From the NCBI GenBank assembly GCA_964395625.1, contig CAYNAR010000001.1, positions 64,019 through 128,018 on the forward strand: DNA of 64,000 nt. The letters run 5' to 3'. This DNA is from an uncultured Gammaproteobacteria bacterium (lineage in GTDB: Bacteria; Patescibacteriota; Patescibacteriia; Patescibacteriales; WJLG01). The first letter of the stretch is position 1. Each line of letters starts with the position of its first letter. Positions 40,037 to 54,518 of this stretch are shown here, in pieces. The notes under the pieces are model-generated. The model searched no databases. It saw nothing but the letters and a program-made list of their open reading frames with translations, and had not been told where the DNA came from. The position numbers and the translations under genes are program-made.

Positions 40037-40067
40037 AAAGTCTTAATTCCAGACCTGCCCCCAAAAT
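40037..40067 (+). repeat. R1 repeat, right-end fragment (copy 0)
   Basis: AAAGTCTTAATTCCAGACCTGCCCCCAAAAT matches the right terminus of the full copy 47847-47877. Confidence 0.8.
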
Positions 40068-40104
40068 AAAAAAAGGGCCGAAATATTTTCGGCCCATAGG
40101 GAAT

Positions 40105-40347
40105 TTAATGATCTGCCGGCAAGTAGACGCATTTTATGTTGATTTCACTCATCATGCTCTGAATTTCTTCAGACAAACTGTCGATGACAGGTTGGTTGCC
40201 GGCGTTGTTTTTTATCTCTACCATCATAGCCTGTATTTTGGACATTTTTTTTATGTCCGAAGCATGTTTTTGAGCAGTAAAGACAACTATCGCTATGCCA
40301 ACGATTACGAAAATAACGCCGATGCCTATAAGCAGTTTTTTCTTCAT
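40105..40347 (-). CDS. Small single-TM protein
   Basis: RBS GGAGG 5 nt before ATG 40347; MKKKLLIGIGVIFVIVGIAIVVF. Confidence 0.55.
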   Translation of the reverse strand: MKKKLLIGIGVIFVIVGIAIVVFTAQKHASDIKKMSKIQAMMVEIKNNAGNQPVIDSLSEEIQSMMSEINIKCVYLPADH

Positions 40348-40690
40348 TGAAACCTCCAAAATAGTTTTTAGTTATGATTCTCGATTTTTTGACTGAAATT
40401 CCGCGATTTCTTGTTACCAGTTCATTCATTTTTATATCCTTTTTTGGTTGTTAACGAACGTTTTTTATATTAATATTATATCATATTTTATACATATTGT
40501 CAATTTTAGTGATCCGGGTTATGGGGAGAAGGGTTGTAGAGAGCCGGGTCCTGACGAGTATTGGGACCAAAGCGCATGTGAAGATACTTATTACTTTGGC
40601 TGTGAAAAGTTGTATTTAGTAAAAATCAAAGAAGACTATTGAAATTTAAAGGCCCGAGGCGATATGCCCTGGCTTTTTAATATAAGAAGC

Positions 40691-40997
40691 AGGGAGGTCT
40701 GGAATAATGCATCGCATCTGTGGTATAATAGTTAAGTATTGAGTTGTGAGTTTTAAAAATATTTTTCAGTATTCTGCCCGCCGGTAAAGGATTTGGCCGA
40801 CCCTCCTTGGCCTTATTCGATGCCAGTGGACAGAATTCTGCCAAAAACAGGCCTTACAAGGGCTTGTTTTTGGTTTATGGAAGGATTTGGGTGGGTGAGC
40901 GGTATTGTGTAGCGGAAGTGAAGCAAGGCGAGGTGTGTTGGTAAATACTGCCAGTTTTTTGTTTAAAACCTTATAATTAAAGACCTGACCCAAAAAC
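40691..40997 (+). repeat. R1 repeat copy 1 (left TIR-like end, part A, T1 hairpin, right end; promoter region replaced)
   Basis: GGAGGTCTGGAATAAT left end; part A 40751-40870 about 85-90% identical to copies 5 and 8; ends AGACCTGACCCAAAAAC. Confidence 0.85.
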
Positions 40998-41151
40998 AAA
41001 AAGTGTCCTTAAAAAAGTGGCAGTAGTTCACTGATTGGTTTGGCGGTTATCTTCTTGATAGCCGTTTTTTTATTTTTTGTGAGGCACTAATTGTGAGAGT
41101 GTGTTTTCTTGAATAAAAAAGCCCTTCATTTTTTAAAATGAAGGGGTGATT

Positions 41152-41940
41152 TTATAAATTCCAGCCAATAGTATTTAGACCAATAAAGAACGTTGGTTTT
41201 ATGGAGGTATTTGATTCTTTGCCGAGTCGCGTTGTGTGTACCTTTGTCGGGTAAAATATGCCAGCCTCGACTCCGAGAAATTTAGCACTCAAGGAGATTG
41301 GCAAATGATGACTTAAGCTATAAATTGTCCGGTCATCACCATTCGAACTGCAATTCTTTTCTGCTTGAAGATGAAAATAGGAAATAAATCCTTTCACTGA
41401 AAAGTAGTCATTAAAAAGATATTCGACGTATGCCTCTGGAGAGATTGCCAAAAAATTATCAAAATCCGGACTCTTTGTTCTGGGAATTACTCCATTCTTT
41501 TTGAAGGTTGTGTAGTATGGTGTTTCGTAAAAATTCCTTGTCCCAGTGCTATTGCTAACGGGTACCCAATAACCACCGGAATGTCCTTTTTCAGGTATGG
41601 TGATATTCCAGTTTAATCCAACGCCAACACTGACCGGCTCAAGGTCGAAATCAAAACGATGCGACAATTCGATCAACAATCCGCTGCGGGAGCGATATTT
41701 TTCTTTCTCAATAACTTGTGTGCGACTCATGTCGAATTTAATCTCATCATAGTATTTTGGCGGCCAAAGCGAAACAGTTCGAATCTCAAGCGGCATATTT
41801 TTAATAACAAGATCATTCGGTCCGATGTATTTTATCGTGACATTATTACAGAGATAATCACCGCTTTCGCCTTTAAGGTTTTGAGTAAATACAAGAGGAG
41901 TGACAATCGCCATTATTTTGGCGCCGGATAATAACTTCAT
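41152..41940 (-). CDS. Secreted beta-rich hypothetical protein
   Basis: 262 aa; N-terminal hydrophobic segment; alternating beta-strand-like pattern; unknown family. Confidence 0.55.
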   Translation of the reverse strand: MKLLSGAKIMAIVTPLVFTQNLKGESGDYLCNNVTIKYIGPNDLVIKNMPLEIRTVSLWPPKYYDEIKFDMSRTQVIEKEKYRSRSGLLIELSHRFDFDLEPVSVGVGLNWNITIPEKGHSGGYWVPVSNSTGTRNFYETPYYTTFKKNGVIPRTKSPDFDNFLAISPEAYVEYLFNDYFSVKGFISYFHLQAEKNCSSNGDDRTIYSLSHHLPISLSAKFLGVEAGIFYPTKVHTTRLGKESNTSIKPTFFIGLNTIGWNL

Positions 41941-42054
41941 TTAGCACCACCTTTTTGAAAGTTTGGTTTGGAAAAAATGTTAATCTCTAAAATAAATATT
42001 TGATTGTGAAAAAACGAAATCATATTATTATATTTAAAAAACGTCATTTTGTCA

Positions 42055-42290
42055 AAAAATAAGCCTCGCGATGGCTTGTTTTTGGTTTACACAATGGTTT
42101 GGGTTGTGTGGCGGTGATTTATATTATCCTGAAAAATAGGCGGTTTTTAGGGCATTTCAGGGCCTTAAAAACGCTTGCAAATTCTATTTTTTCGTGTTAT
42201 ATTATGGCTTAATCCAAAAATGGCAAATATTGCCAGTTTTTTCGTTTAAAACGCTAAAAGCAAAGACCCGCTCTTAAAGTGATCCAAAAA
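42055..42290 (+). repeat. R1 repeat copy 2 (starts at T1 hairpin; promoter and T2 present)
   Basis: AAGCCTCGCGATGGCTTGTTTTTGGTTT...TATTATCCTGAAAAATAGGCGG...CTTGCAAATTCTATTTTTTCGTGTTATATTATGGCTT...TGGCAAATATTGCCAGTTTTTT. Confidence 0.85.
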
Positions 42291-42331
42291 CCGTGTTCAT
42301 TAAAAAAACTTAAAATGAAAAGGAGTGAAAA

Positions 42332-42826
42332 ATGACAAGGTATTGCTTGGTGTTGTTGTCCATGTCCATAGCTTCCGTGATTTCCGGAATGCTTTACGTC
42401 CAATTTTTCGATTCGTTTAGAAGTAGGAAATTTTTGAAATTATTTCTATATTCAATCGGATTGACTGCTGTCGCCGGAATCTGTTTCACCTTGATGAATG
42501 ATTTTCAGCAAAAACTCGTTCCCATCGACTTTGTGAAAAGCGTAGCGTTCTATGGAGGGATGGTTATCGCTTTGCCGGTAGTTTTTTTCATCGTCTTTTC
42601 TTTGTTCCTTCATCCTTTCCTTGGTTGCAAGCCAGCTATTGGCAACAACCAATTGGCTTATGCCCTTTTATCATGCATAGCGTTTCTTCTTCCGTTGATT
42701 TTTGTAAAAGGAGTGATAATGACCGAGCCTCCAAGTTTCTTCGTTCTACTATTTGGGGTTTGTACTTGCTCCCCGGTCATAATTATCTTATTCGTTGCTA
42801 AAAATTTTAAAAAATCACTTGCTTAA
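42332..42826 (+). CDS. Polytopic membrane protein (about 5 TM), unknown function
   Basis: RBS AAGGAG; hydrophobic throughout. Confidence 0.6.
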   Translation: MTRYCLVLLSMSIASVISGMLYVQFFDSFRSRKFLKLFLYSIGLTAVAGICFTLMNDFQQKLVPIDFVKSVAFYGGMVIALPVVFFIVFSLFLHPFLGCKPAIGNNQLAYALLSCIAFLLPLIFVKGVIMTEPPSFFVLLFGVCTCSPVIIILFVAKNFKKSLA

Positions 42827-42986
42827 ATGGTCCATTTGCGAGGCCTCAAGAATATTTTCTTGAGGCTTTTAATTTAAACTTATAATTTGTATTGTCCTAT
42901 AAAATTATTTGAAAACGCTTACATGGATATGGCGATTCCGAAGATGAAGACCTTTTTGATGATGATTTTTAAGTTTATAATAAAAT

Positions 42987-43256
42987 ATGAATTTCAATAA
43001 ATTAGAAATTGGTAAGCCAATATTAAGTATCACGGGCAGAGCTAGTTATGGAATAATAGGAATAGGGAAGGATGATTCTTGTGTTTATTACAAAAGAATA
43101 AATACTGGATCAGAAGAAAAAATAGAGAAAACAAAACTGGAAGAAATCAAGAGAATGAAAGAGGCTGGGAAAAAGATCAATACAAAAACCATTAAAGAAA
43201 TCGTTCCAAGAAAGCAGTCGCCGGCATTGGCAATACTAAAGAAGCTTGAAGAGTAA
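42987..43256 (+). CDS. Small basic hypothetical protein
   Basis: 89-aa ORF; its last about 8 codons recur as a remnant at 45016-45048. Confidence 0.45.
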   Translation: MNFNKLEIGKPILSITGRASYGIIGIGKDDSCVYYKRINTGSEEKIEKTKLEEIKRMKEAGKKINTKTIKEIVPRKQSPALAILKKLEE

Positions 43257-43285
43257 TACAACAAAGCTTAACCCAAGGCCCGATA

Positions 43286-43418
43286 TTGTTTTAAAGTCTT
43301 TTTTATGCTAAGGTTAGATTTAATAATAAAACAGACAAGTTTGATCACATTCCGGAGGGACTAATGAGATGGACGATAAAGATTTGAACAAGGCAAGATG
43401 TGGCCTTGTTTTTGTTTT
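43286..43418 (+). promoter_or_regulatory. F2 module copy a: promoter TTGTTT-17-TGcTAAGGT, RBS plus 7-codon mini-ORF (43364-43387), terminator (43388-43418)
   Basis: GGAGGG-4nt-ATGAGATGGACGATAAAGATTTGA abuts stem ACAAGGC/GCCTTGT plus T run; 3' ~60 nt identical in copy b. Confidence 0.6.
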
Positions 43419-43436
43419 CTCGTTAATCTTTATAAA

Positions 43437-43895
43437 ATGAATATCATTATCACTAAACCTCAAGATGAGGAAATAGATATAGTTAAAGATGTTACCGAGA
43501 AAGCCTATAAAGAACCGTATCATGAAAACAGTCTAATCACCCAATTCAAGGAAGCCGATGATTTGAGAGAGAAATTCGTTAACGGTGAAATCGGCATAGT
43601 CGTTGCCCGTATTAATGATCAAATAGTTGGCTCGGTTAGATACAAGATAAAAGAAACCGGTGAATTGTATCTATTCAAATTAGCCGTCTTGAAAGAGTTT
43701 AGAAAAAATGGCATAGCTTCGAAGCTTCTATTGGCAATAGAAGAAGAGGCGAGAAGAATTAATATTTTAACAATAAAGCTGGATTGCGCTCAAGAAAAAT
43801 TCCTGCCGCCATTTTATGAAAGACACGGATATAAAATAGATGAAATCAGAGAACACGGCGATCATCATGATGTCTATATGTCGAAAGTCGTTTGA
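43437..43895 (+). CDS. GNAT-family N-acetyltransferase
   Basis: Start MNIIITK; LAVLKEFRKNGIASKLLLAIEEEA (motif A R/QxxGxA); YERHGYK. Confidence 0.8.
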   Translation: MNIIITKPQDEEIDIVKDVTEKAYKEPYHENSLITQFKEADDLREKFVNGEIGIVVARINDQIVGSVRYKIKETGELYLFKLAVLKEFRKNGIASKLLLAIEEEARRINILTIKLDCAQEKFLPPFYERHGYKIDEIREHGDHHDVYMSKVV

Positions 43896-43910
43896 TTATT
43901 TAAATTTTTT

Positions 43911-43985
43911 AGGTAGCCATGAAAACACCCCGCGGGGTGTTTTTTGTGCTTTTAAGGTTTGTTTTTGGTTTAGGGGCGGGCGACT
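43911..43985 (+). repeat. R1-related degenerate fragment (copy 3) with terminator module
   Basis: AGGTAG..GAAAACACCCCGCGGGGTGTTTTTT plus AAGGTTTGTTTTTGGTTTAGGGG. Confidence 0.6.
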
Positions 43986-44119
43986 AAAATAATATTTTAA
44001 AATGTAATTTTGTGATATTATTATTTTAGGAGGGAAACGTAGAAAAATTTTTTTGGCGCATAAAAAGCCGAAATCAACCACTATGCCCCTTTAGGTGGTG
44101 GTATTTTTTTAATTTTTTT

Positions 44120-44752
44120 ATGATTTATGCTTATATAGATGAATCTGGTAATCTTGGCTACAATGAAGGATATTTTATTATTGCCATGTTATCTTCCAAT
44201 AATCCGAAGCGACTAAAAAATATAATAAAATCATTTTGCGCCTATAAATCATTGTCAGAAGTTCATGCAACCGACCTATCTTTCCCTGATAAGCAATACT
44301 TGGTAAACAAACTAGTAAAGCAAAAGGATTACAGCATTTCCTATGTCATTGCCGACAAAATGATGATTGAAAATAAAAAATTATTTGATAATAACAACAT
44401 ACTTTTTAATTATCTTTTCTCTTTTTTAGTTAAAGATATTATTGCTGCCAATACGGGCGATATAGTTTTGCATTTAGATAATAGAACGCAAAAAGTAGCG
44501 TCAGCTAATTCGTTAAAGGATTATATACATATAAAAGCCTTTGCCGAGTGGGGGTTTGATAAAAATCTTGTGATAAGCTATATAGATTCAAAACATTCCA
44601 AGGCTGTGCAAATGGCCGATTTGGTAGCCAACTGCATACATCGCAAGTATCGTCATGGCGTAAGTGATTTTTATTCGCGCTTAAATATTGTGAAGTCCAT
44701 CAAATTTCCAAGTTTAAGTTTTAGAGAAAATTTATTTTTAAAAGATAGTTGA
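44120..44752 (+). CDS. DUF3800-family protein
   Basis: N-terminal MIYAYIDESGNLG; C-terminal Q.ADLVAN region. Confidence 0.7.
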   Translation: MIYAYIDESGNLGYNEGYFIIAMLSSNNPKRLKNIIKSFCAYKSLSEVHATDLSFPDKQYLVNKLVKQKDYSISYVIADKMMIENKKLFDNNNILFNYLFSFLVKDIIAANTGDIVLHLDNRTQKVASANSLKDYIHIKAFAEWGFDKNLVISYIDSKHSKAVQMADLVANCIHRKYRHGVSDFYSRLNIVKSIKFPSLSFRENLFLKDS

Positions 44753-44776
44753 CAAAAAGATATAAATTGATAGTAT
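44749..44776 (+). promoter_or_regulatory. Promoter TTGACA-16-TGaTAGTAT overlapping the DUF3800 stop codon
   Basis: Consensus -35; extended -10. Confidence 0.45.
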
Positions 44777-44782
44777 TATAAT

Positions 44783-44876
44783 ATACATAAATCCTATAGG
44801 GAGCTCTAAGGAGTAAGCGGCGTTTCCGCCGTCGAACTATAGGTAGTTGTGAAAACACCCTGAGGGGTGTTTTTTA
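44783..44876 (+). ncRNA. Candidate small RNA (about 90 nt) downstream of DUF3800
   Basis: Closing helix CCTATAG(44793-99)/CTATAGG(44837-43), inner hairpin CGGCG-TTTC-CGCCG, terminator ACACCC-TGAG-GGGTGT plus T5. Confidence 0.45.
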
Positions 44877-45012
44877 GTATAACCTAAGGCTTGTTTTTGG
44901 TTCCTAGAAGGATTTAGGCAGGGAGGGGGTATTTATATTATCCTGAAAAATAGGCGGTTTTCAGGCTATTTTGGGGCCTGCAAAACGCTTGTAGTTTCTA
45001 TTTTTCATCTAT
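44841..45012 (+). repeat. R1 repeat copy 4 (terminator module, T1 half, part B; promoter degenerate)
   Basis: AAGGCTTGTTTTTGGTTCCTAGAAGGATTT...TATTATCCTGAAAAATAGGCGGTTTTCAGGC...CTTGTAGTTTCTATTTTTCA. Confidence 0.8.
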
Positions 45013-45015
45013 TAC

Positions 45016-45077
45016 AAAAGGGCAATATTGAAGAAGCTTGAAGAGTAATACAACAAAGCTTAACCCAAGGCCCGATA
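45016..45077 (+). repeat. Duplicate of the 3' end and downstream flank of CDS 42987-43256
   Basis: GGCAATATTGAAGAAGCTTGAAGAGTAATACAACAAAGCTTAACCCAAGGCCCGATA vs 43227-43285, nearly identical. Confidence 0.8.
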
Positions 45078-45106
45078 TTGTTTTAAGGTCGTTTTTATGC
45101 TAAGGT
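45078..45106 (+). promoter_or_regulatory. F2 promoter copy c (TTGTTT-17-TGcTAAGGT), no mini-ORF or terminator
   Basis: Same promoter as 43286 and 46064; reads directly into CDS 45144. Confidence 0.55.
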
Positions 45107-45143
45107 TGGATTCAATACAACACCGAATTAAAATAAATAATTG

Positions 45144-46073
45144 ATGAAAAAAATTGAAAGAATAAAAGACATTCTAAGTAGAATTGATAATGATAGTTTG
45201 CTTAGAATCAAGCAGGAAATTAAGGATAAGGAATTACTATTGATATCTTTGGCGGAAAAAGGGGAGATAAGCGACAAAACTTGTGAAGACTCCGTCTTTG
45301 ATTATTTAAAATTGAGTAAAAATCCGCCCCGGCCAAAAAATTTAAACGAGCTCATGGTTCAATTTATCGGTAGTGCGTTCAGTTACAATAGAATAAGAAT
45401 ACAAATGCGCAAGATTCATAGAGAAAGATTTGGCAATCCCGATTTTCCGATAAAAAGCGAGCACAAAAAGATATTGTCATATATTTTTAACGATCAAAGA
45501 TTGAATGACGATTTTTTTTGGCACCCAGAAAGGTTGGGAATTCTAATGGATGAGATTGAGAGTAGGGGGGACTATAATAACCCGATGATTATAACACCGT
45601 ATTGGCTTGGGCGTATAATGTCTACCTTGCTGACAGCGCCGAAAAGAATAATGGAGATTACAGGTGGCGACATATCTGCTTTCTATAAAAAAATCGACGA
45701 AATGTGCAATGACGAATGCCAAGGCGACATCTTTGAAAAATCCAAAAGATTATGGAATTTTGCCAAAGAGATTAGTGTTGGAGTAAAGAATGTAGGCCCC
45801 AATCTGGTTTGTGATTTTTTGAAAGAATCCGGTTTTACAGCCTACGCCAAAATGGATGTCCACCTAATGAGGAGTATGGGGAATTTCTTACATAATTTTA
45901 AAGATGAGAAACTTGATGATTTTGAATCCTTTGTTACCGCGCAGTGGTTTGCCGATAAGATAGGAATGACGCCGTATAGATTTGATAAGATTTTGTTTGT
46001 CTGGGGTATTCAATATCCACAAAAAAATAAAAAAGCGAAGTGCAAGAAAGAAACCACCCAATGTTGTTTTTAA
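45144..46073 (+). CDS. Hypothetical protein with possible HhH-GPD (endonuclease III-like glycosylase) C-terminal motif
   Basis: GVKNVGPNLVCDFLKESGFTAYAKMDVHLMRSMG resembles GVGxKTAxxV...xxVDxHxxR. Confidence 0.35.
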   Translation: MKKIERIKDILSRIDNDSLLRIKQEIKDKELLLISLAEKGEISDKTCEDSVFDYLKLSKNPPRPKNLNELMVQFIGSAFSYNRIRIQMRKIHRERFGNPDFPIKSEHKKILSYIFNDQRLNDDFFWHPERLGILMDEIESRGDYNNPMIITPYWLGRIMSTLLTAPKRIMEITGGDISAFYKKIDEMCNDECQGDIFEKSKRLWNFAKEISVGVKNVGPNLVCDFLKESGFTAYAKMDVHLMRSMGNFLHNFKDEKLDDFESFVTAQWFADKIGMTPYRFDKILFVWGIQYPQKNKKAKCKKETTQCCF

Positions 46074-46198
46074 GCTGTTTTTGTGCTAAGGTTGGATTTA
46101 ACAAAGAAATAGACAAGTTTAATCACATTCTGAGGGGATTAATGAGATGGACGATAAAGATTTGAACAAGGCAAGATGTGGCCTTGTTTTTGTTTTTT
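46064..46198 (+). promoter_or_regulatory. F2 module copy b: promoter, mini-ORF (46142-46165), terminator (46166-46198)
   Basis: -35 overlaps the stop of CDS 45144-46073; mini-ORF MRWTIKI identical to copy a. Confidence 0.6.
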
Positions 46199-46203
46199 AG
46201 TAT

Positions 46204-46380
46204 ATGATAAAAAAGATTTGCACGGATGAAGATAAATTGAGGTGTCCTAATTGTGGTGGTGAATTATATTTTGCTGCAGAGTTTAAGAAAGAAGATGTAA
46301 TATATTACGAATGTCGCAGTTGTGAGAGCGGAAAAAATCAGTCCAAGGTAAGAGTAGTTGGGGGCTTAGTTTGTTGGTGA
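46204..46380 (+). CDS. Small zinc-ribbon protein (58 aa; below ORF-track cutoff)
   Basis: MIKKICTDEDKLRCPNCGGELYFAAEFKKEDVIYYECRSCESGKNQSKVRVVGGLVCW; CxxC...CxxC. Confidence 0.55.
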   Translation: MIKKICTDEDKLRCPNCGGELYFAAEFKKEDVIYYECRSCESGKNQSKVRVVGGLVCW

Positions 46381-46402
46381 ATTTTTAAAATAAAATTAAA
46401 AT

Positions 46403-47800: not shown

Positions 47801-47812
47801 ATGGCTTAAATT

Positions 47813-47951: not shown

Positions 47952-47957
47952 TAATTT

Positions 47958-48019: not shown

Positions 48020-48030
48020 AAATACGATAT

Positions 48031-48723: not shown

Positions 48724-48753
48724 AGAGTAATATGAAATAATGGGTCTTTGTAG

Positions 48754-48990
48754 AAACAAGCCTCTTGGGGTTTGTTTTTGGTTTCTAGAGGGACACAAAG
48801 CATGTCACCCCGAGCGTAGCCGAGGGATCATAATAATTCTTACTCCTTATTATCCTGAAAAATAGGCGGTCTTAAGGCTGTTTTGGGGCTCTAGTTGTTA
48901 TTGCGAGGCCGGTATTTCCGGCCGTGGCAATCCAGTATTAAAATCACCTAAAAACACTTGCAAATTATATTTTTTCGTGGTATATTATGA
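48754..48990 (+). repeat. R1 repeat copy 6 (T1, part B with two small insertions, promoter; T2 and right end absent)
   Basis: AAACAAGCCTCTTGGGGTTTGTTTTTGGTTTCTAGAGGG ... TATTATCCTGAAAAATAGGCGG ... CTTGCAAATTATATTTTTTCGTGGTATATT. Confidence 0.85.
48958..48986 (+). promoter_or_regulatory. R1 promoter copy driving the methyltransferase-rSAM-peptide operon
   Basis: TTGCAA-17-TGgTATATT; no T2 hairpin before ATG 49051. Confidence 0.6.
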
Positions 48991-49050
48991 CTTCCTCAAA
49001 ATCGTTATAAAATAAAATTTATTTTTTGATAGTATGTTAATGCGAGACTT

Positions 49051-49521
49051 ATGAATAATTTTTTAGAAGAATTTATAAAGGAAAAATATGGATCAAACGT
49101 TGGCTCGGCTTTGGATTTTGGCGCCGGTAAAGGTGTTGATGTTCGCGAGCTACAAAAAATAGGCTGGGATGTCAAAGGCCTTGATCTTCCCAGTAATGAT
49201 CTTAACTTTCCTTATAAGACCGATAAACAAGTTGATTTTATTTATTCCATAGCAGTAATCCAGTTTATCAAAGATAAGGAAGTTTTTGTTAGAAATATTA
49301 TCGACAATCTTAAGGATGATGGTTGGTTTTTTATTTTAACCTTTTCTAAGAATGATGTTTTCTTTGGTGAGAAAGGCGGTATGTCAAAAGAAGATTTAGA
49401 AGGTCTTTTTAAAGAATTTAAAAATGTAAAAACCGAAAACAAAGATTTTTTCGATAATGACATAGGGCATAATCATTGGCATAAATTACTTATAGTAACA
49501 GGACAAAAAAGGGGGGAGTGA
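49051..49521 (+). CDS. Class I SAM-dependent methyltransferase
   Basis: ALDFGAGKGVDVRELQKIGWDVKGLDL; DFIYSIAVIQFI; LKDDGWFFILTF. Confidence 0.7.
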   Translation: MNNFLEEFIKEKYGSNVGSALDFGAGKGVDVRELQKIGWDVKGLDLPSNDLNFPYKTDKQVDFIYSIAVIQFIKDKEVFVRNIIDNLKDDGWFFILTFSKNDVFFGEKGGMSKEDLEGLFKEFKNVKTENKDFFDNDIGHNHWHKLLIVTGQKRGE

Positions 49522-50270
49522 TGAGTAGATTTTATTTGCAAATGCACATTACAAATAAGTGTAATAATCGATGCTCGCATTGTTATCAGTCTGACTATGG
49601 CGGAGAAGATATGAGTGTCGATTCGGCAAAGTTGATTTTTAAAGAGCTTTCTTCGATTTGTAAAAAAGTTTCAGTAAGGTCGGAAGTTTCAATTACTGGA
49701 GGTAGTCCCGTATTGGCGGATGGTTTTATTGAAATAGTCGAGACAGCCAGGGAGCTTTGCGATGTCGTAAGGATTCTTGGCAATCCAGAAGGATTGAGTG
49801 ATGAAATAGTTTTGTTTTTAAAAAAGGTCGGAGTGGATGGTTTTCAACTGTCCCTTGATGGCTCAAGACAGACCCACGATTCTTTAAGAAGTAGCGGTAG
49901 TTTTGACAGGACTATAAGTGCTATGAAGAAGCTATCGTCGGAAGGAATTTTAGTTTTTGTTAATTCTACTTTATCTGATAATAATCGCCACGAAATAAGT
50001 CTTATTAATGAAATCGCAGAAGCTAATGGCGCCAGTCATGTTTCTTTTGAAGAGTATGTTCCGTATGGTTTGGATTGTTCCGGAAAATGTAATTGTAGTT
50101 TGGGCTCCGCCACAATGGCCATTTTGCCGGATCTTACAATTATGGCTTGTCGAAGGACTCCGTCTAGTATTCTTGGAAAATGGACCAAGGAGCGTGGATT
50201 ATTTTATCATTTAGCCAAAAATGAAAAAATGATAGAGTATAGGAGAAGGAAGGCGTTGAAAAATGCATAA
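49518..50270 (+). CDS. Radical SAM enzyme with short C-terminal Cys-rich (twitch/partial SPASM-like) region
   Basis: Overlaps upstream stop (GTGATG); CNNRCSHC = CX3CX2C; ITGGSPVL; LSLDG; C-terminal CSGKCNCSLGSATMAILPDLTIMAC. Confidence 0.8.
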   Translation: MMSRFYLQMHITNKCNNRCSHCYQSDYGGEDMSVDSAKLIFKELSSICKKVSVRSEVSITGGSPVLADGFIEIVETARELCDVVRILGNPEGLSDEIVLFLKKVGVDGFQLSLDGSRQTHDSLRSSGSFDRTISAMKKLSSEGILVFVNSTLSDNNRHEISLINEIAEANGASHVSFEEYVPYGLDCSGKCNCSLGSATMAILPDLTIMACRRTPSSILGKWTKERGLFYHLAKNEKMIEYRRRKALKNA

Positions 50271-50306
50271 TATAATCAACCTTAAAAAAGAAAGGAGTAA
50301 GTGCCC

Positions 50307-50414
50307 ATGTCACAAGAGCTTGAACTTCAAAACTTGAAGCTGGCTGGCGTTTTTGATGAAGCTTGTACGCTTTGTATCAATGTCGGCACCGGTGGCGGAT
50401 CGGATAATGATTAA
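50307..50414 (+). CDS. Candidate RiPP precursor peptide (35 aa), not in ORF track
   Basis: RBS AGGAG; MSQELELQNLKLAGVFDEACTLCINVGTGGGSDND; 36 nt after the rSAM stop; terminator follows. Confidence 0.6.
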   Translation: MSQELELQNLKLAGVFDEACTLCINVGTGGGSDND

Positions 50415-50430
50415 TTATCATATCCTCCTG

Positions 50431-50459
50431 GACTACAACGTTCGTTGTAGTCCTTTTTA
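50431..50459 (+). terminator. Intrinsic terminator of RiPP operon 1
   Basis: GGACTACAAC-GTTC-GTTGTAGTCC plus T5. Confidence 0.85.
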
Positions 50460-50530
50460 TTTAGTGATTTAAAATATGGTTGTTGTGAGTAAGACAAAAC
50501 AGTGTTGAGACGGAATCGCTAAAAGTAAAG

Positions 50531-50801
50531 TTCTGATTCCAAAATGCCAAAAATAAGCCTCCTGTGAGCTGCACCCCGTTTAGTAGACACGAATAAAATA
50601 CTAGCGGTTCTCTAAAAGGGTTTAGAAGGGGTCTGGCAATTTGTATTATCCTGAAAAGTAGGCGGTTTTCAGGCCATTTTGTGGCCTTGAAAGCGCTTGC
50701 AAATTCTATTTTTTCGTGGTATATTATGGCTTAAATTAAAAATGGCAAATATTGCCAGTTTTTTGTTTAAAACCTTATAGCTAAAGACCTGGCCCCAAAA
50801 T
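50531..50801 (+). repeat. R1 repeat copy 7 (degenerate left part; part B, promoter, T2, right end)
   Basis: TATTATCCTGAAAAGTAGGCGGTTTTCAGGCC...CTTGCAAATTCTATTTTTTCGTGGTATATTATGGCTTAAATTAAAAATGGCAAATATTGCCAG...AGACCTGGCCCCAAAAT. Confidence 0.85.
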
Positions 50802-50825
50802 TTGAAAACACCCTGAGCAAACTAA

Positions 50826-50850
50826 AAACCAACCCGTTAAGGTTGGTTTT
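50826..50850. terminator. Bidirectional hairpin after the minus-strand HEPN pair
   Basis: AAACCAACC-CGTTAA-GGTTGGTTT. Confidence 0.65.
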
Positions 50851-50861
50851 TGACTAACTAA

Positions 50862-51218
50862 CTATTCAGTATCTTTGGATTTTATTATATTAGCATAATG
50901 CACCGTATTTCCGTTTACCTTTTCATTTTCTATAATCGATCCCGACTTAAATTGCATTAATTCTTGAATAAGGTGTTCGGTCTCGGGGTAAATAGCTATT
51001 CTGGCTATTTCACTAACTTCTTCAGGACTTAATGAGTCAATAATATTTTTGCGAATAATATTGAACACTTCTTCTCTGTTTTCATCATTTGCCCAGGGAG
51101 CACAAAAAACAATCGTCCATTTATCAACGAATTCATCCATTTTGAGTAAAGCAAAAATCGTAACTTCGCTTTTTTCCTCCTCAATTTTTTCTATTATTTC
51201 TTTAAATTTTTCTAACAT
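50862..51218 (-). CDS. Hypothetical acidic protein, downstream partner of the HEPN gene
   Basis: Overlaps the HEPN ORF by 7 nt; no nucleotidyltransferase motif seen. Confidence 0.55.
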   Translation of the reverse strand: MLEKFKEIIEKIEEEKSEVTIFALLKMDEFVDKWTIVFCAPWANDENREEVFNIIRKNIIDSLSPEEVSEIARIAIYPETEHLIQELMQFKSGSIIENEKVNGNTVHYANIIKSKDTE

Positions 51219-51667
51219 ATAATATTTTTCTCTATAAGTGGGATTATTCCATCTGGCTTTTTCGTGAGAAAAGTATATAAATTTTTTGTAATTTTTTCAT
51301 CGAACTGAGTAAGCGTATCATACCTAATGTCAGTCCATCTTCCTATTTTTGAGTATTCTTGTGTGAAACCCGACCAACTACTAGCGCCTTCTCCGGACAG
51401 CTCAAATATTTCAGAAGCGCCGGAAATAGGGAGCAACAAATCAAAATCATGTGTCAAAAAATAACTAGTTATCTTTGGATTTTTAGTTTTTTTTATTTCT
51501 GGATAATTTTTTAAATTAAGCACTTTGCATGCCGATGCCTTCAATATGCATTCTAACACAAACCCCATTAGATATACAGCAACGCCCCATTCCTGATTGG
51601 ATATTAAAATATCGACCGTTTTAAGGCGATTTTTAGCTAAGGTAAGAAAATCATTGCAATTAGCCAT
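51212..51667 (-). CDS. HEPN-domain protein
   Basis: FLTLAKNRLKTVDILISNQEWGVAVYLMGFVLECILKA; THDFDLLL; C-terminal IRYD, matching classical HEPN helix layout. Confidence 0.55.
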   Translation of the reverse strand: MANCNDFLTLAKNRLKTVDILISNQEWGVAVYLMGFVLECILKASACKVLNLKNYPEIKKTKNPKITSYFLTHDFDLLLPISGASEIFELSGEGASSWSGFTQEYSKIGRWTDIRYDTLTQFDEKITKNLYTFLTKKPDGIIPLIEKNIIC

Positions 51668-51792
51668 AATAATTTTAAAATAGCATAAAAATATTATTAA
51701 GGCAAGTTTGCAGAAGTGACCATAAAAACAGATCTTTAACGATATTTACTTGGAAATATTTGTTTTTTTATGTTACGCTAAAGCTTAATATG

Positions 51793-52026
51793 AAAATATT
51801 TTCCAGTATTCTGTCCGCCGGCAAAGAGCTGGCCGACCCTCCTCGGCCTGCTTGATGCCAGTGGACAGAATTCTGCCAAAAACAGGCCTCGCAAGGGCTT
51901 GTTTTTGGTTTCTGGAAGGATTTAATCGTGGTTGTGGTGTTTGTATTATCCTGAAAAATAGGCGGTTTTAAGGCTATTTTGGGGTCTTGAAAGCACTTGC
52001 AATTTCTATTTTTTCGTGGTATAAAA
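51793..52026 (+). repeat. R1 repeat copy 8 (part A, T1, part B, promoter; T2 and right end absent)
   Basis: AAAATATTTTCCAGTATTCTGTCCGCCGGCAAAGAGCTGGCCGACCCTCCTCGGCC...CTTGCAATTTCTATTTTTTCGTGGTATAAA. Confidence 0.85.
51997..52025 (+). promoter_or_regulatory. R1 promoter copy (TTGCAA-17-TGgTATAAA) driving the rSAM-peptide-HExxH operon
   Basis: No T2 hairpin; RBS AGGAGG and GTG 52077 lie 50 nt downstream. Confidence 0.6.
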
Positions 52027-52076
52027 AATAGAAATGTTTTTTGATAGAGCACTTTAAATTTTTACAGGAGGTTTTT

Positions 52077-53384
52077 GTGATTTACAGAAGTTTAACAGCT
52101 CCAATATCTTGCCAAATTGAATTGACAACGGCTTGTCAGCTTAAGTGTGTTCATTGTTATAATCACTGGAGATGCTTAAGTTGCGACAACGATTTGTTTA
52201 TGACCGAAAAAGAGGCGGAGTTTGTCGCTAATCAGATTATTGATGCAAAGGTATTTCAGGTGACTCTAACCGGTGGAGAACCTTTGCTTAACCGCAAGGC
52301 ATTATTTCGTATTCTTGATTTACTGAAAGATGAAAGAATTGAAATCGGGTTAAATTCTAACTTGATTAGTCTGAGTGAGAAGGATGTTGATATTCTGCAT
52401 GCTGGAAATGTTAAATCCGTTTTAACTTCGTTTGCTTCATCTAGCGAAAGTGTGAATGATAGTATAATGAAGCTTGACGGGGCGCAAAAAAGAATAATCA
52501 AAGGGATCGAGTTGGTTGTGGAAACTGGTTTTAGTGTTGGTTGTAGCATGGTTGTCACCAAAATGAATCTTGATGATGTTGTTGAGACCGGATTATTCCT
52601 TCAGAGTCTTGGTGTGACTAATTTTTACGCCACAAAGGGTTCCCCACCGCTAAACTCCAAAGGTTTTGATAACTTTATGCTTTCCGGCGATGAATTGTTG
52701 AAGGTGATGGATGATTTGAGCTTATTAAAGGAAAGACACGGCCTTGAAGTTGGGATTTTGGAATGTTACCCGGTTTGTTTTTATTGTTTCCAGGAAAAAT
52801 ACCCTTTTACTGTCGGTAAGCGTTGTAGTGCTGGGTCGACGGCTTGTGCTATTGGTTCTGCTGGTGACGTTAGGGCTTGTACTCATTCAGACGTTATTTA
52901 CGGTAATATCTTTAAAGGAGGTTTAAAGGAAGCGTGGGGTGAAATGAGGGACTGGAGAGATGGGGCTAGGATTTCCTCGACTTGTAGAACGTGTGTTTAT
53001 TTTCCTGAATGTAGCGGTGGATGTAGAGTTGATGCTGAATTTTGCGGTGGTGCTAAGGATTCCATGGATCCTTATGCTGATAAAAATCAGATAGCAAGTG
53101 TCAGCTTGCTTAAAAAAGATGTATTGGTTGAATTTTCCGAAGAACAAAGATTTTTTGTAAAAAAAATAAAATTTAGAAAAGAGATTGACTCTGTTTTATG
53201 CGCAAGCCTTGATCGCGTGCATAGTCCGGTTTTGTTGACGGTGGATATGTTTGATTTTCTTGTTGAAATGAGTGAAAAGACCTTTACATTGTCGGAAATG
53301 TCAAGTATAATCAACTTGGATATTAATTCTTGTAAGGAATTGTGTTCATGTCTTTTTAAGGATGGATTGCTAAGTGTTCTTTAA
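52077..53384 (+). CDS. Radical SAM/SPASM-domain peptide maturase with C-terminal PqqD/RRE-like extension
   Basis: GTG 52077 with RBS AGGAGG (track TTG 52041 unlikely); CQLKCVHC; TGGEPLL; CSAGSTACAIGSAGDVRAC; CRTCVYFPECSGGC...C (CX2CX5CX3C). Confidence 0.85.
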   Translation: MIYRSLTAPISCQIELTTACQLKCVHCYNHWRCLSCDNDLFMTEKEAEFVANQIIDAKVFQVTLTGGEPLLNRKALFRILDLLKDERIEIGLNSNLISLSEKDVDILHAGNVKSVLTSFASSSESVNDSIMKLDGAQKRIIKGIELVVETGFSVGCSMVVTKMNLDDVVETGLFLQSLGVTNFYATKGSPPLNSKGFDNFMLSGDELLKVMDDLSLLKERHGLEVGILECYPVCFYCFQEKYPFTVGKRCSAGSTACAIGSAGDVRACTHSDVIYGNIFKGGLKEAWGEMRDWRDGARISSTCRTCVYFPECSGGCRVDAEFCGGAKDSMDPYADKNQIASVSLLKKDVLVEFSEEQRFFVKKIKFRKEIDSVLCASLDRVHSPVLLTVDMFDFLVEMSEKTFTLSEMSSIINLDINSCKELCSCLFKDGLLSVL

Positions 53385-53403
53385 AAAGAAAGGAGGTAAT
53401 TGC

Positions 53404-53544
53404 ATGAAAGAGAAGAAGAGCTTCGGATACGTTTCTTTGTTGCTCGATACATCTGTCGAGAATAAAAAAGACGATTCTAAAGCAGCTGTTTCGATGTCTT
53501 GTTACTGCAATTGTAATAGTTGCAATTGTTATGTGACAAAGTAA
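53404..53544 (+). CDS. Candidate Cys-rich RiPP precursor peptide (46 aa), not in ORF track
   Basis: RBS GGAGG; MKEKKSFGYVSLLLDTSVENKKDDSKAAVSMSCYCNCNSCNCYVTK; starts 19 nt after the rSAM stop. Confidence 0.7.
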   Translation: MKEKKSFGYVSLLLDTSVENKKDDSKAAVSMSCYCNCNSCNCYVTK

Positions 53545-53559
53545 AGTTTCTTGTTTTAT

Positions 53560-53578
53560 GGGCATCAATTTGATGCCC
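53560..53578 (+). other. Perfect stem-loop between precursor ORF and HExxH gene
   Basis: GGGCATCA-ATT-TGATGCCC; no clean T run. Confidence 0.6.
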
Positions 53579-53588
53579 TATTATATTT

Positions 53589-54299
53589 ATGCTAAAAAAG
53601 ATAGGTTTAAAATTTGTTTCAAATAAAAATAACGATGTGGAGGAATTTTTTCGTCTCTGGCATGGGCACGAAAATCTTAGAGTTGGCTTAATGGATTTTG
53701 TAAATAACAATTCGAACAATATCATACACCCCGATATTGCCCCGTCGAAAGATATTTTGGCTTTGGCTGTGAAAAGTAGATACGAGATGGATGAGAAAAA
53801 GATCGTTAAAACGTTATTTTTTGCGGAGAACAAATGGTGCGAAATAGAACCGTTATTTTATGATTTAGTCGGCAAGATATTTAAGAAGGATTTTTCCTTT
53901 GATAAAATAATAAAGGTCTATGTTTCAGTGCTTCCGTTTTTTGTAAGAAATTTGGATGAAGGGCGTGTCTCTATTCCGTATAACACAAGCAATGAAAACG
54001 AGCCAGTTTTTGTTTTAGCTCATGAGCTCTTGCATGTTATTTTCTATTCTTACATTCATGATAATTATGAAGAATTAAGAGAAAGTCTTTCTAGTAAGAA
54101 GGTTTGGGATTTTTCTGAAGCTATAAACGTCGTTATACAGGGGCAGGTTGAGTGGGTGAATATTTTTAAAATAGAGCCCAGCTTTTATCCCGAGCACGAA
54201 GCGTTGTACTTAGCACTGAATAAAAAGTGGGAAAAAGATAAAGACATAGATTCTTTGATAAGGGATTTTTTGGTTAATGTGGCAGAACGGCAAAATTAA
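53589..54299 (+). CDS. Putative HExxH zinc metallopeptidase
   Basis: VFVLAHELLHVIFYSY; same operon as rSAM and precursor. Confidence 0.5.
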   Translation: MLKKIGLKFVSNKNNDVEEFFRLWHGHENLRVGLMDFVNNNSNNIIHPDIAPSKDILALAVKSRYEMDEKKIVKTLFFAENKWCEIEPLFYDLVGKIFKKDFSFDKIIKVYVSVLPFFVRNLDEGRVSIPYNTSNENEPVFVLAHELLHVIFYSYIHDNYEELRESLSSKKVWDFSEAINVVIQGQVEWVNIFKIEPSFYPEHEALYLALNKKWEKDKDIDSLIRDFLVNVAERQN

Positions 54300-54518
54300 A
54301 AACAAGCCTTTTGGGGCTTGTTTTTGGTTTCTGGAAGGATTTAATCGTGGTTGCGGTGTTTGTTTGTCCTGAAAAATAGGTGGTTTTAAGGCCATTTTGG
54401 GGTCTTGAAAACACTTGCAATTTCTATTTTTTTGTGTTATATTATGGCTTAATCTAAAAATGGCAAATATTGCCAGTTTTTTGTTTAAAAAGTCTTAATC
54501 ACAAATCCGACCTCAAAA
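54297..54518 (+). repeat. R1 repeat copy 9 (T1, part B, promoter, T2, degenerate right end)
   Basis: AAACAAGCCTTTTGGGGCTTGTTTTTGGTTTCTGGAAGGATTTAATCGTGG...CTTGCAATTTCTATTTTTTTGTGTTATATTATGGCTT...TGGCAAATATTGCCAG. Confidence 0.85.

Follow-up and report, generated by a model that had tools for sequence, protein, structure and literature searches.

Introduction

Integrons carry gene cassettes that are mostly promoterless, lie in one orientation and are read from a common promoter; their attC sites are imperfect hairpins of 57 to 141 nt (RYYYAAC...GTTRRRY, with inner L''/L' pairing), the tyrosine recombinase gene intI lies beside the array, and a CALIN needs no intI. Here, we describe a locus in a 64-kb window (the whole stretch of patescibacterial DNA analyzed, to which all coordinates refer) where 14.5 kb of small defense, toxin, and peptide-modification units, punctuated by copies of a repeat termed R1, lie between two glycosyltransferase genes. 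Like integron arrays and CALINs, the locus combines small units in one orientation (mostly orphans, with toxin-like genes and a GNAT), a conserved structured repeat between them, a fixed site whose content varies between relatives, and occasional reversed units with promoters of their own. Unlike integrons, it has neither intI nor the R''/L''...L'/R' attC architecture; R1 is 2 to 5 times the length of attC and holds a predicted promoter, a predicted terminator, and a putative small-RNA gene, its cassettes are not promoterless at the consensus level, and its boundaries are not uniform. To our knowledge, a regulatory linker of 230 to 340 bp repeated between every unit has not been described.

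Putative mobile promoters were defined by at least 80% identity over 50 to 100 nt upstream of non-homologous genes (Matus-Garcia et al. 2012, PMC3488235). The R1 array shares with them similar promoter regions before non-homologous genes in one genome and also between genomes, but R1 is stacked at one locus in one orientation, within a composite with a terminator and a putative small-RNA gene, and its edges coincide with gene-content breakpoints. Flexible (additive) glycosylation islands of Alteromonas (PMC3698932) are likewise strain variable, hold a conserved position beside cell envelope glycosyltransferase genes, and gain and lose cassettes between close relatives; the additive islands on record are, for the most part, associated with tRNA genes, integrases, or integrons, in which the R1 array differs. 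The dif modules of Acinetobacter plasmids (PMC6449649, PMC13141974) are comparable in being small accessory modules, toxin-antitoxin included, with short conserved sites and no recombinase inside the array, since their enzymes act in trans. However, the R1 array is chromosomal, gave no match to a 28-bp XerC/XerD-type site, does not alternate in orientation, and has long, regulatory linkers. Finally, tandem islands at the ends of tRNA, tmRNA, or small-RNA genes resemble it in units stacked at one target, in direct repeats that are full or partial copies of a small-RNA gene end (here A-B, B alone, or the 3' arm of B, in the module terms below), and in the relics of the GT4 5' end found in relatives. 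They differ in that no integrase was found in any R1-array unit, that these units are far smaller than known islands, and that R1 extends past the RNA gene through promoter and leader.

Results

Ten copies of R1, all on the + strand, were recovered at the places named by a sequence-only reading of this DNA. They are confined to 40009-54518, and self-BLAST of both strands of the other 49.5 kb of the window returned none; searches with each R1 module gave 4 to 5 matches against 0.00 expected in shuffled sequence. The copies are modular and unequal, from 58 to 335 nt long. From 5' to 3', the modules are A, a small-RNA-like hairpin of ~70 nt; B, a predicted bidirectional intrinsic terminator with 11-nt inverted arms around a 6- to 7-nt spacer; C-D, phased A/T tracts; E, a predicted extended -10 promoter of the sigma-70 type (at the consensus level, TTGCAA-17-TATATT with TG upstream in six copies); F, a palindrome plus T-run of 34 to 35 nt at the predicted transcript start; and G, a C-rich motif marking the right end. 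The D-E-F core is 80 to 97% identical across the six copies with promoter E, and F is identical in three full window copies and over 32 to 35 nt in 9 of 10 copies from relatives. Terminator-like sites numbered 37 against 13.4 expected, and several units, the reversed ones included, have their own promoters matching the consensus at 12/12 positions. The promoters and terminators earlier ascribed to the repeat, and the separate promoters of reversed units, are thus seen at the consensus level, from which we infer that promoter E and terminator B are active. Copies in which E faces a gene precede non-related genes, as described for putative mobile promoters.

The left flank is GT2 (38341-39288, + strand; Pfam PF00535, 5.9e-34), whose position is conserved in all relatives, with orthologues 72 to 88% identical in amino acids (L013, L023, L026, L010, L015, and L029). 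A 209-aa ORF with no assigned function (39359-39988, +; no Pfam or PADLOC match) is absent at the matching position in L013 and L023, and in L013 terminator B directly follows GT2; this ORF is therefore probably the first variable unit. R1 copy 1 (40009-40066) consists of an unrelated terminator hairpin with a T-run and then motif G only (40039-40066). It is followed by a small membrane-protein unit (40105-40359, -) with its own 12/12 promoter (40503-40475) and by copy 2 (40713-40996; 40731-40996 in the list of repeat coordinates), where an extended -10 promoter, TGGTATAAT, is accompanied by hairpin A (40756-40842), B (40843-40876), a degenerate F (40939-40968), and G (40969-40996), without D or E. 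Next lies a 262-aa orphan (41152-41940, -; own 12/12 promoter, 42055-42027) whose single homologue among 5.8 billion proteins searched is in L013. Copy 3 (42055-42278, B-C-D-E-F-G') is 99.6% identical to its L013 counterpart and leads to a + strand unit (42332-43895) made up of a 164-aa membrane protein, an 89-aa protein, the linker R2 (43229-43436), and the GNAT (43398-43895).

Copy 4 (43910-43971) joins a foreign terminator to the 3' arm of B alone. The DUF3800 gene that follows (44120-44752, +; PF12686, 6.5e-14) encodes a protein 88.8% identical in amino acids to one in L004, where its gene lies directly upstream of GT4. Copy 5 (44840-45005) has a foreign terminator, the B 3' arm, C, D, and only the 5' half of E, and it runs into R2 (45021-45117); the unit beyond (45141-47534, +) contains a 310-aa orphan, R2 again (46057-46214), a 58-aa zinc ribbon, a 288-aa orphan, and a 75-aa zinc ribbon. 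The complete module set occurs in copy 6 alone (47542-47876, A-B-C/D'-E-F-G), which has an inverted G-like motif at its left end and is 92.8% identical to L023 positions 16117-16421, where the neighboring genes are unrelated. The NYN-domain cassette downstream (47924-48723, +; Pfam NYN, 7e-9; PADLOC HEC-09, 2.9e-36) combines a leader hairpin with a 12/12 promoter of its own (47924-47951).

Copy 7 (48751-49001) contains two insertions besides B, D, and E, and it lacks F and G. It precedes a + strand unit (49051-50414) that encodes a methyltransferase, a radical-SAM protein akin to the ACGX class, and a peptide of 35 aa (50307-50414). In copy 8 (50546-50800), the 5' arm of B is followed by C-D-E-F-G, and its promoter points at a convergent unit of two overlapping ORFs of 118 and 151 aa, at most a candidate toxin-antitoxin or HEPN pair (50862-51667, -; no Pfam match, only weak PADLOC matches). 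Copy 9 (51793-52023, A-B-C-D-E) leads straight from its promoter into the radical-SAM gene of a + strand unit (52077-54299) comprising a radical-SAM/SPASM maturase, a Cys-rich 46-aa peptide (53404-53544), and a HELLH protein. Copy 10 (54297-54518, B-C-D-E-F-G) is directly upstream of the reading frame of the right flank, GT4 (54529-56403, +), in which the N-terminal 255 codons form an extension in frame with the canonical start, MKKILILNYEFPP, at 55296; homologues align over just 58% of the ORF. The accessory array of cassette-like units first read from the letters, fixed in place between glycosyltransferase genes, thus stands. So do most of the gene assignments, with the GNAT, DUF3800, NYN, methyltransferase, GT2, GT4, and two radical-SAM proteins (one SPASM) recognized by Pfam and the HELLH motif and two Cys-rich peptides present; the "HEPN pair" and the "HhH-like" protein found no profile support.

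Independent short-read contigs of the same strain match single cassette-R1 junctions at 99.9 to 100% identity. Every such contig ends within R1, so the order of the cassettes is that of the source assembly alone.

Homology between copies ends on the right at the same base after G in five window copies, four L004/L008 junctions, and two L023 linkers, independently of what comes next. Three classes of right end occur overall (after G, after F, and inside E), and left ends are ragged. Three half-copies of B are each broken within the 6- to 7-nt loop, whose sequence varies between copies, and no conserved motif was found on the cassette side of the junctions. Exact tracts common to R1 copies measure 20 to 66 nt; paralogous copies within one genome differ by 6 to 25%, and orthologous copies across genomes are 93 to 99.6% identical.

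Hairpin A has an invariant apical loop, CCCUCC(U), that resembles an anti-Shine-Dalgarno sequence, and its folding z-scores range from -5.5 to -8.9. In an alignment of seven copies, 92.3% of pairs are formed and 18 of 41 pairs show compensatory changes; none of 500 shuffles covaried as well, and a slide control reached at most 0.152 versus 0.416. Three or more of the seven copies have promoter-like sequence of their own ahead of the hairpin, and one copy, in L013, is a free-standing unit that has its own promoter and ends in a different terminator. A second small-RNA-like unit (44749-44875, +), linked to the DUF3800 gene, has a promoter, a hairpin (CCTATAG...CTATAGG), and a terminator. Its window and L004 versions hardly differ: the segment is 90.8% identical and the hairpin ~100%, against 81.4% in the coding sequence. 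Rfam 15 gave no family at threshold over hairpin A or the DUF3800-linked RNA; the only threshold match in the window is a tRNA-Ser (27347-27433), and a permissive scan of the array yielded sub-threshold chance matches only.

R1 arrays occur at the equivalent GT2/GT4 locus in related Patescibacteria contigs, and the cassettes differ. Distinct sets were found in L013, L023, L010, and L004/L008/L011, as in flexible genomic islands, and L015, L017, and L029 keep the flanking genes and have no R1. Altogether, the window and its R1-bearing relatives have ~23 copies in ~34 kb of array, and ~70 kb outside the arrays in these genomes is free of R1 except for the stand-alone small-RNA copy in L013; in L013, L023, and L004, R1 is restricted to sequence that follows GT2 or precedes GT4. 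Across 185,579 species genomes, a module E 28-mer matched only three contigs, and a 28-mer scan of the other contigs of two genome-collection MAGs found no R1. A module F 22-mer matched six metagenome contigs, three of which carry other R1 modules; phage, plasmid, and viral collections gave no R1 match.

Cassettes and linkers held in common are 81 to 99.6% identical, against 69 to 79% for flanking genes. At the nucleotide level, the window and L013 share a cassette block at 92.5% and R1 at 99.6% versus 79.3% for GT2; with L023, the values are 89.3% for the GNAT segment, 95.6% for a 135-nt piece, and 92.8% for R1 versus 69 to 70% for the flanks; and with L004, the DUF3800 segment is 81.3% and GT4 72.5% identical. 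The evidence that was to undermine a cassette platform, invariant content and normal vertical descent, is not what these comparisons returned: content varies, and cassettes and linkers are far more alike between lineages than the flanks are, a pattern that suggests a non-vertical history. Linkers are also more conserved than synonymous sites of adjacent genes, which points to selection on their sequence. L004 and L008 are 99.6 to 100% identical, yet they differ by a 729-bp indel and an extra linker/unit before GT4. The breakpoints that separate genomes, and those that separate strains, match linker edges, joins are located at short shared motifs (e.g., GAAAACACCC), relics of the GT4 5' end lie within the arrays of L023 and L029, and contigs of many assemblies terminate inside arrays.

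The reported lack of an integrase or transposase held: Pfam found no integrase, transposase, or recombinase domain in 59 window ORFs, which are essentially all non-overlapping ORFs of at least 120 aa plus the small cassette ORFs. Likewise, no recombinase appeared among the ORFs checked at the array loci of relatives (3 ORFs in L004; 11 to 17 kb each in L013, L023, and L029). A scan of 39901-54600 on both strands with our own RYYYAAC...GTTRRRY hairpin pattern, cruder than the IntegronFinder covariance model, found no attC-like site, with 0.04 expected in shuffles. A search for CATAA-N6-TTATGTTAAAT that tolerated as many as 3 mismatches found nothing either, although the dif site of this lineage may diverge. 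Terminal inverted repeats were not consistent in three of the four full-length R1 copies examined; the copy at 47542-47876 and its L023 orthologue carry the inverted G-like motif at the left end, with 14 of 16 positions matching. No target-site duplications were seen at R1 ends. Partial A-B copies and GT4 5' relics are present, with no integrase in any visible unit.

Discussion

For R1, a regulatory intergenic linker that has been duplicated, and that also holds a putative small-RNA gene, is the better description. The dissimilarity to attC noted from the sequence was borne out, and R1 is rejected as an attC site; with no attC-like sites or intI in the window and cassettes that are not promoterless, a place in the integron family finds no support. 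We favor, tentatively and with somewhat less than even confidence, an intergenic landing pad that was duplicated by recombination as units accreted, each linker insulating and driving its unit. A single ancestral R1 region between the GT2 and GT4 glycosylation operons of this patescibacterial lineage would have been that pad. Small foreign units of 1 to 3 genes, in either orientation, would have been added by recombination with the linker as homology, whether by single crossover of a circle, by unequal crossing-over, or, once DNA had been taken up, by a double crossover involving two linkers; the first capture of a gene would have been an illegitimate join. Each event would copy all or part of the linker, and in relatives also the first 45 to 85 nt of GT4, leaving an array in one orientation of partial and full linkers. 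The partial copies built of different module subsets support duplication, as do the GT4 5' relics of L023 and L029 and the joins at short motifs, and the exact tracts of 20 to 66 nt would make homologous recombination feasible; the direction of events and homologous recombination as the engine are inferred.

This reading accounts for the uniform right end after G in rearrangements but not in first gene capture, where ragged ends would be expected. Given the 6 to 25% divergence, RecA recombination between R1 copies of the same genome would also be inefficient. The apparent selection on linker sequence, beyond that at synonymous sites nearby, counts against this reading too. Moreover, the half-copies of B broken in the loop, and its 11-spacer-11 geometry, would suit a tyrosine-recombinase core site. 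The half-copies also favor an integron-like, site-specific alternative, which we consider unlikely: a recombinase whose gene lies at another place in the genome, or is carried by a helper element, would act on R1 (at the B hairpin, the boundary at the G end, or the long hairpin A) to insert and excise units of 0.5 to 2.5 kb, too small to be autonomous. The sharp, identical boundary after G in many copies and all four strain-level junctions fits such an enzyme. So do the units in either orientation after G beside linkers all in one orientation, the integron-typical content of orphans, toxin-like genes, and a GNAT, and the GT4 relics and partial small-RNA copies, which resemble the att duplications of elements that target gene ends. 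However, recombinase domains are missing from the window and the checked array ORFs of four relatives, as are attC-like or dif-like sites; the cassette side lacks a conserved motif, the differing B loops would block strand exchange by a tyrosine recombinase, and there are three classes of right end, with ragged left ends.

R1 might instead be a mobile promoter with a small-RNA gene, copied before accessory genes to place them under one control circuit, in an island that varies by ordinary processes and with no part for R1 in gene movement. One promoter and leader at 80 to 97% identity ahead of unrelated genes matches the published definition (PMC3488235), and an extreme degree of conservation, in F and across the linker as a whole, suggests sequence-specific regulation. 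Even so, this explanation is doubtful: several copies have no gene to drive (2 and 8 point at convergent units, 1 is G only, and 4 is half of B), breakpoints among genomes and strains coincide with linker edges, and contigs of many assemblies end inside arrays. The other earlier suggestion, copies of a non-autonomous transposon (MITE) piled up at this locus and carrying promoter and terminator by chance, is very improbable and, as a classic MITE, rejected, since a fitting non-coding length of 230 to 340 bp and the inverted G-like motif of the complete copy and its L023 counterpart are set against remaining copies without terminal inverted repeats, no visible target-site duplications, a single orientation and locus across the genomes seen (the window, L004, L013, and L023), no copy in the ~70 kb of flanking sequence or (28-mer scan) in the other contigs of two MAGs, and no transposase.

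To conclude, the array looks like a gene-swapping platform without a visible integrase, and the new kind of cassette platform first suggested for it is possible. Under the landing-pad reading, terminator B would halt transcription of the upstream unit and promoter E would drive the downstream one, so that each unit would be insulated and separately expressed, and linkers held in common would let lineages of these Patescibacteria exchange units.

Results

Repeat finding, self-BLAST and MAFFT alignment of the intergenic regions delineated R1, the modular repeat (modules A to G) between the gene units of the array, as a single family of 10 copies, every one on the + strand, and recovered the ten positions and common orientation that a sequence-only reading of this DNA had proposed. 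The copies lie at 40009-40066, 40731-40996, 42055-42278, 43910-43971, 44840-45005, 47542-47876, 48751-49001, 50546-50800, 51793-52023, and 54297-54518, and sum to 2,070 nt, or 14% of the array interval. Three R1 module probes returned 4-5 matches each versus 0.00 in shuffled sequence, and self-BLAST found no copy on either strand of the remaining 49.5 kb of the window. The cassette order is taken from one assembly; exact-protein look-ups with the window cassette proteins yielded no strain-level variants and returned only collinear short contigs from the same strain. The R1 array is real and nonrandom, and its architecture is conserved across several related lineages.

Except for 47542-47876, the sole copy with all modules, R1 copies are module subsets. 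Module A is a ~70-nt imperfect hairpin with three window copies (folding z-scores of -5.5 to -8.9 versus shuffled sequence), and module B is a predicted bidirectional intrinsic terminator, AAAAACAAGCC-(6-7 nt)-GGCTTGTTTTTGG, reduced to its 3' arm behind a different terminator at 43910-43971 and 44840-45005 and to its 5' arm at 50546-50800. Modules C-D consist of A/T tracts with a phasing of ~10-11 nt, as read directly off the sequence. Module E (six window copies) reads TTGCAA-17 nt-TATATT with a TG one base 5' of the -10 hexamer; the copies at 44840-45005, 48751-49001, and 51793-52023 end inside it. Module F is a perfect palindrome, TGGCAAATATTGCCA, followed by GTTTTTTGTTTAAAA, and module G is AGACCTGACCCCAAAA, right after which sequence likeness ends. 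The F element of 34-35 nt is identical in three window copies and, over the 32-35 nt aligned, in 9 of 10 copies from relatives whose flanks are 21-30% diverged. Terminator-like sites are in excess in the array region (37 observed versus 13.4 expected), and reverse-strand units have their own promoters with a 12/12 consensus match. The F palindrome was ruled out by inspection as a sigma-54 site, its GG-to-GC spacing being two bases short; R1 was also ruled out as coding sequence, since the ORFs spanning it vary among copies and are broken by indels. Module D carries GGCGGT in five of six window copies (e.g., 42136-42141 and 51958-51963), GGTGGT in the sixth, and GGCGAT in the related contig L004. 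The ops/JUMPStart core, with which RfaH works in the polysaccharide operons of other bacteria, opens with this GGCGGT hexamer. The likeness is probably coincidental, and D sits 5' of promoter E.

Module A is a small-RNA-like gene. In the consensus fold of five copies from three genomes, 10 pairs are compensated and the apical loop, CCCTCCT, is invariant and similar to the 16S anti-Shine-Dalgarno sequence; none of the Rfam families matches this hairpin. A covariance model built from those five copies retrieved seven distinct full-length copies (three in the window, two in L013, and one each in L004 and L023). In the seven-copy alignment, which was fitted to the covariance model and hence favors the structure, 92.3% of pair cells are paired, both sides have changed in 18/41 pairs, none of 500 shuffles matches the observed values, and the covariation score is 0.416, against at most 0.152 when partners are slid. 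Promoter-like sequence precedes three copies: TGGTATAAT at window position 40714, TTGCAA-17-TATAAT in L004, and TTGAAT-17-TATTAT in L013. The last of these copies (L013 11059-11189, - strand) lies 5' of the glycosyltransferase gene GT2, outside the array; its own promoter and different terminator make it a free-standing transcription unit, and thus RNA A exists apart from the linker. Pairing of RNA A with ribosome-binding sites is a plausible role.

Two further elements accompany the array. A second linker family, R2 (43229-43436, 45021-45117, and 46057-46214; L013 2870-3005), comprises a promoter-like stretch, a GGAGGG Shine-Dalgarno/ribosome-binding site, a 7-codon ORF (MRWTIKI), and a terminator hairpin, a layout that resembles a leader-peptide attenuator. 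The GNAT start codon falls within the loop of the R2 terminator hairpin. Directly 3' of the DUF3800 gene, the stretch at 44749-44875 combines a TTGACA...TATAAT promoter, a hairpin (CCTATAG...CTATAGG), and a terminator; it is nearly invariant relative to L004 ~3880-4000, the DUF3800 gene being just 81% identical, and looks like a candidate DUF3800-linked small RNA. All Rfam families, including the published DUF3800 motifs, scored below threshold on it.

Pfam supports GNAT, DUF3800, NYN, methyltransferase, and two radical-SAM enzymes in the window, as well as the flanking glycosyltransferases GT2 (38341-39288) and GT4 (54529-56403). These earlier labels therefore stand, and those of a "HEPN pair" and an "HhH-like" protein drew zero profile support. 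The NYN cassette protein matches PADLOC candidate HEC-09 (2.9e-36), and a HELLH protein and two short peptides rich in Cys are encoded alongside the radical-SAM genes. The peptides at 50307-50414 (...DEACTLCINVGTGGGSDND) and 53404-53544 (...SMSCYCNCNSCNCYVTK), which adjoin radical-SAM genes, look like candidate precursors of modified peptides; the 250-aa radical-SAM protein matches an ACGX-class model over its N-terminal half alone. PDB sequence searches with the 310-aa and 288-aa orphan proteins gave zero matches, and a 262-aa cassette protein has one homologue among 5.8 billion proteins, in L013. The array locus is chromosomal, judging by the surrounding ATP synthase, cell-division, wall-synthesis, and polysaccharide synthesis genes, and the nearest named relatives of the window are Patescibacteria.

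The array surroundings have features of their own. The GT4 frame carries an in-frame N-terminal extension (54529-55295, 255 codons, hydrophobic start) ahead of a canonical GT4 start (MKKILILNYEFPP) at 55296, most homologues being ~365 aa long. Possibly this extension is a unit that was fused or captured, in which case the array would in fact end, on its right side, at ~55295. The 560 nt 5' of GT2 (37781-38340) hold a good promoter (38270-38298), no + strand ORF of at least 40 aa, and no R1 modules. A second NYN-domain gene (62589-63164; Pfam 1.4e-19) lies outside the array, ~8 kb 3' of it. GC content is ~0.40-0.50 up to ~33 kb and 0.27-0.39 thereafter, and GC skew is positive along the entire window, so the + strand is probably leading.

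About six related lineages underlie the R1 comparison. Across the genomes of 185,579 species, a module-E 28-mer matched just three contigs, of which two (L004 and L005) are real multicopy R1 loci, and a module-F 22-mer matched six metagenome contigs, three with further R1 modules (L008, L010, and L011, the last an exact match to L004). The remaining hits are probably due to chance: L006, from a Clostridia MAG in the genome scan, has a 31-34-nt promoter-core match alone, and L007, L009, and L012, from the metagenome scan, match the F palindrome alone, all without other R1 modules. Protein-guided look-ups added L013 (a longer sequence of the L005 contig), L023-L029, L015, and L017. L023/L024/L025 represent an additional lineage with R1; L026-L028, a GT2 relative, have a B-like fragment on a contig that stops shortly past GT2; and L015, L017, and L029 have the flanking genes without R1. 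In every R1-bearing lineage, copies lie 3' of the GT2 orthologue or 5' of the GT4 orthologue, oriented as they are in the window. Independent assemblies contain many contigs that stop within arrays, as expected from repeats combined with strain heterogeneity. The L005/L013 contig, CAZJPG010000002.1, is labeled "uncultured Gammaproteobacteria"; given its 79-99.6% nucleotide identity to the Patescibacteria-like window locus, the contig was probably misbinned or misclassified.

The cassette sets at the GT2/GT4 site differ among relatives. L013 holds three reversed and three forward orphans, a 487-aa protein, and a block of 262-aa and 164-aa proteins shared with the window; L023 holds GNAT, a weak HEPN-like protein, Bro-N, SocA_Panacea with its partner, a small lipoprotein-like protein, a zinc ribbon, and a DUF3800-like protein; and L004 holds an SPFH protein and DUF3800. 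In L010, the unit beside GT2 (1249-2304) encodes a ParA/MinD-like ATPase (AAA_31, 1.4e-29), a type of gene frequent on plasmids and mobile elements. Among loci devoid of R1, the order is GT2, UDP-glucose dehydrogenase, epimerase, and GT4 in L015 and GT2, three other genes, and a GT4 in L029, and the gene 5' of GT4 in L017 is unrelated. L029 repeats a terminator hairpin of its own (AACTACAGAG.TA.CTCTGTAGTTATAAAAATAT; ~2420-2455 and ~4065-4100) between the genes intervening between GT2 and GT4, and linker-punctuated insertion here may thus extend beyond the R1 family.

Nucleotide identities suggest that the history of the array is not vertical. Between the window and L013, a cassette block is 92.5% and an R1 copy 99.6% identical, against 79.3% in the GT2 flank; for L023, GNAT (89.3%), a 135-nt piece (95.6%), and an R1 copy (92.8%) stand against GT2 (70.0%) and its upstream gene (68.7%); and for L004, a DUF3800 segment (81.3%) stands against GT4 (72.5%). 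The genes neighboring the R1 copy common to the window and L023 are unrelated between the two genomes. Linker 41941-42331 matches L013 at 98-99.6% identity, versus 91-92% in the adjoining coding sequences, where changes are mostly at third positions. L004 and L008 are 99.6-100% identical, yet differ by a 729-bp indel taking out most of DUF3800 and by one extra linker or unit ahead of GT4.

Discussion

Three kinds of footprint at this locus suggest that an intergenic landing pad was duplicated repeatedly: R1 partial copies of varied composition; the first 45-85 nt of GT4 as truncated relics, each followed by a G-like motif, in the arrays of L023 (13207-13290 and 16034-16078) and L029 (~4270-4310), with none in the window array; and joins at short shared motifs, as in L023, where the counterpart of window 43428-43931 is joined to that of 50802-50935 at GAAAACACCC. 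R1 copies have common exact tracts of 20-66 nt, which reach or exceed the pairing length usually needed by RecA. The footprints and these tracts together favor recombination on the linker itself as the process that would build the array, with illegitimate joins when a gene is first captured.

Alternatively, a trans-acting recombinase could insert small units at a defined linker site, the G end or the B loop, which would amount to an unrecognized cassette-capture system of candidate-phylum bacteria; we consider this unlikely. Whatever sequence lies beyond, the point past G where homology stops is identical in five window copies, four L004/L008 junctions, and two L023 linkers; the three B half-copies are broken within the loop of an arm-spacer-arm structure that has the geometry of a tyrosine-recombinase core site; and R1 paralogues are 6-25% different versus orthologues that are 93-99.6% identical. 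The better conservation of linker 41941-42331 than of neighboring coding sequence, together with that of F, points to selection at the sequence level. All these facts keep a site-specific trans mechanism alive. No recombinase or transposase domain was found in 59 window ORFs, i.e., essentially all nonoverlapping ones of at least 120 aa plus small cassette ORFs, and for these the sequence-only reading was right in reporting neither enzyme; the three ORFs scanned at the L004 locus likewise include no recombinase, nor did one come to light at the loci of L013, L023, and L029 (11-17 kb each). If this mechanism were true, each captured unit would automatically be supplied with a terminator for insulation, a strong promoter, and a regulatory small RNA linked to the unit, so that the system would function as an "expression-ready integron" without attC or IntI.

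Integrons are the nearest functional match, since their arrays likewise consist of small units in one orientation, most of them orphan or toxin-like, that vary among relatives. The integron-like layout seen in the first reading holds to that extent, but all defining features tested fail: integrase domains and Rfam matches are absent, and our own scan, cruder than IntegronFinder's covariance model, found zero attC-like sites in the array, in keeping with the earlier remark that R1 is unlike attC. dif modules (PMC6449649) also lack a recombinase within the array, but no dif-like site was found here, which argues against Xer/dif modules. Tandem islands at RNA-gene ends share partial-gene repeats with this locus, but no integrase was seen in any visible unit here. 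The alternative first suggested, a local pile-up of a MITE, was rejected as regards a classic MITE because the inverted end motif occurs in one copy alone. A phage or plasmid source of R1 was rejected on the absence of R1 module patterns (n = 3) from 2.9 million viral contigs and of a full R1 copy, by BLAST, from 72,556 plasmids and 50,697 phages.

The array fits the definitions of both putative mobile promoters (PMC3488235) and flexible genomic islands beside glycosylation genes (PMC3698932), but a stacked, linker-punctuated array lies outside either concept. Our literature search turned up no account of an array of this kind in Patescibacteria. We read the locus as a flexible island plus a propagated promoter, and consider it unlikely to be a truly new cassette system, as it would be if a dedicated enzyme takes part.

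Patescibacteria have tiny genomes and few recognized mobile elements, and their acquisition of accessory and defense genes is poorly understood. At this compact site, structured by repeats, such genes turn over and cross between lineages whose flanks are 21-31% diverged, and no recombinase is visible. The linker also yields a new family of covarying small RNAs whose loop resembles an anti-Shine-Dalgarno sequence, which is directly testable, and in F a 34-35-nt leader element, invariant or nearly so between lineages and equally open to direct testing. If recombination on a duplicated regulatory linker suffices to build and exchange an expression-ready cassette array, this would be a simple modular route of gene gain, and other streamlined genomes could be screened for it.
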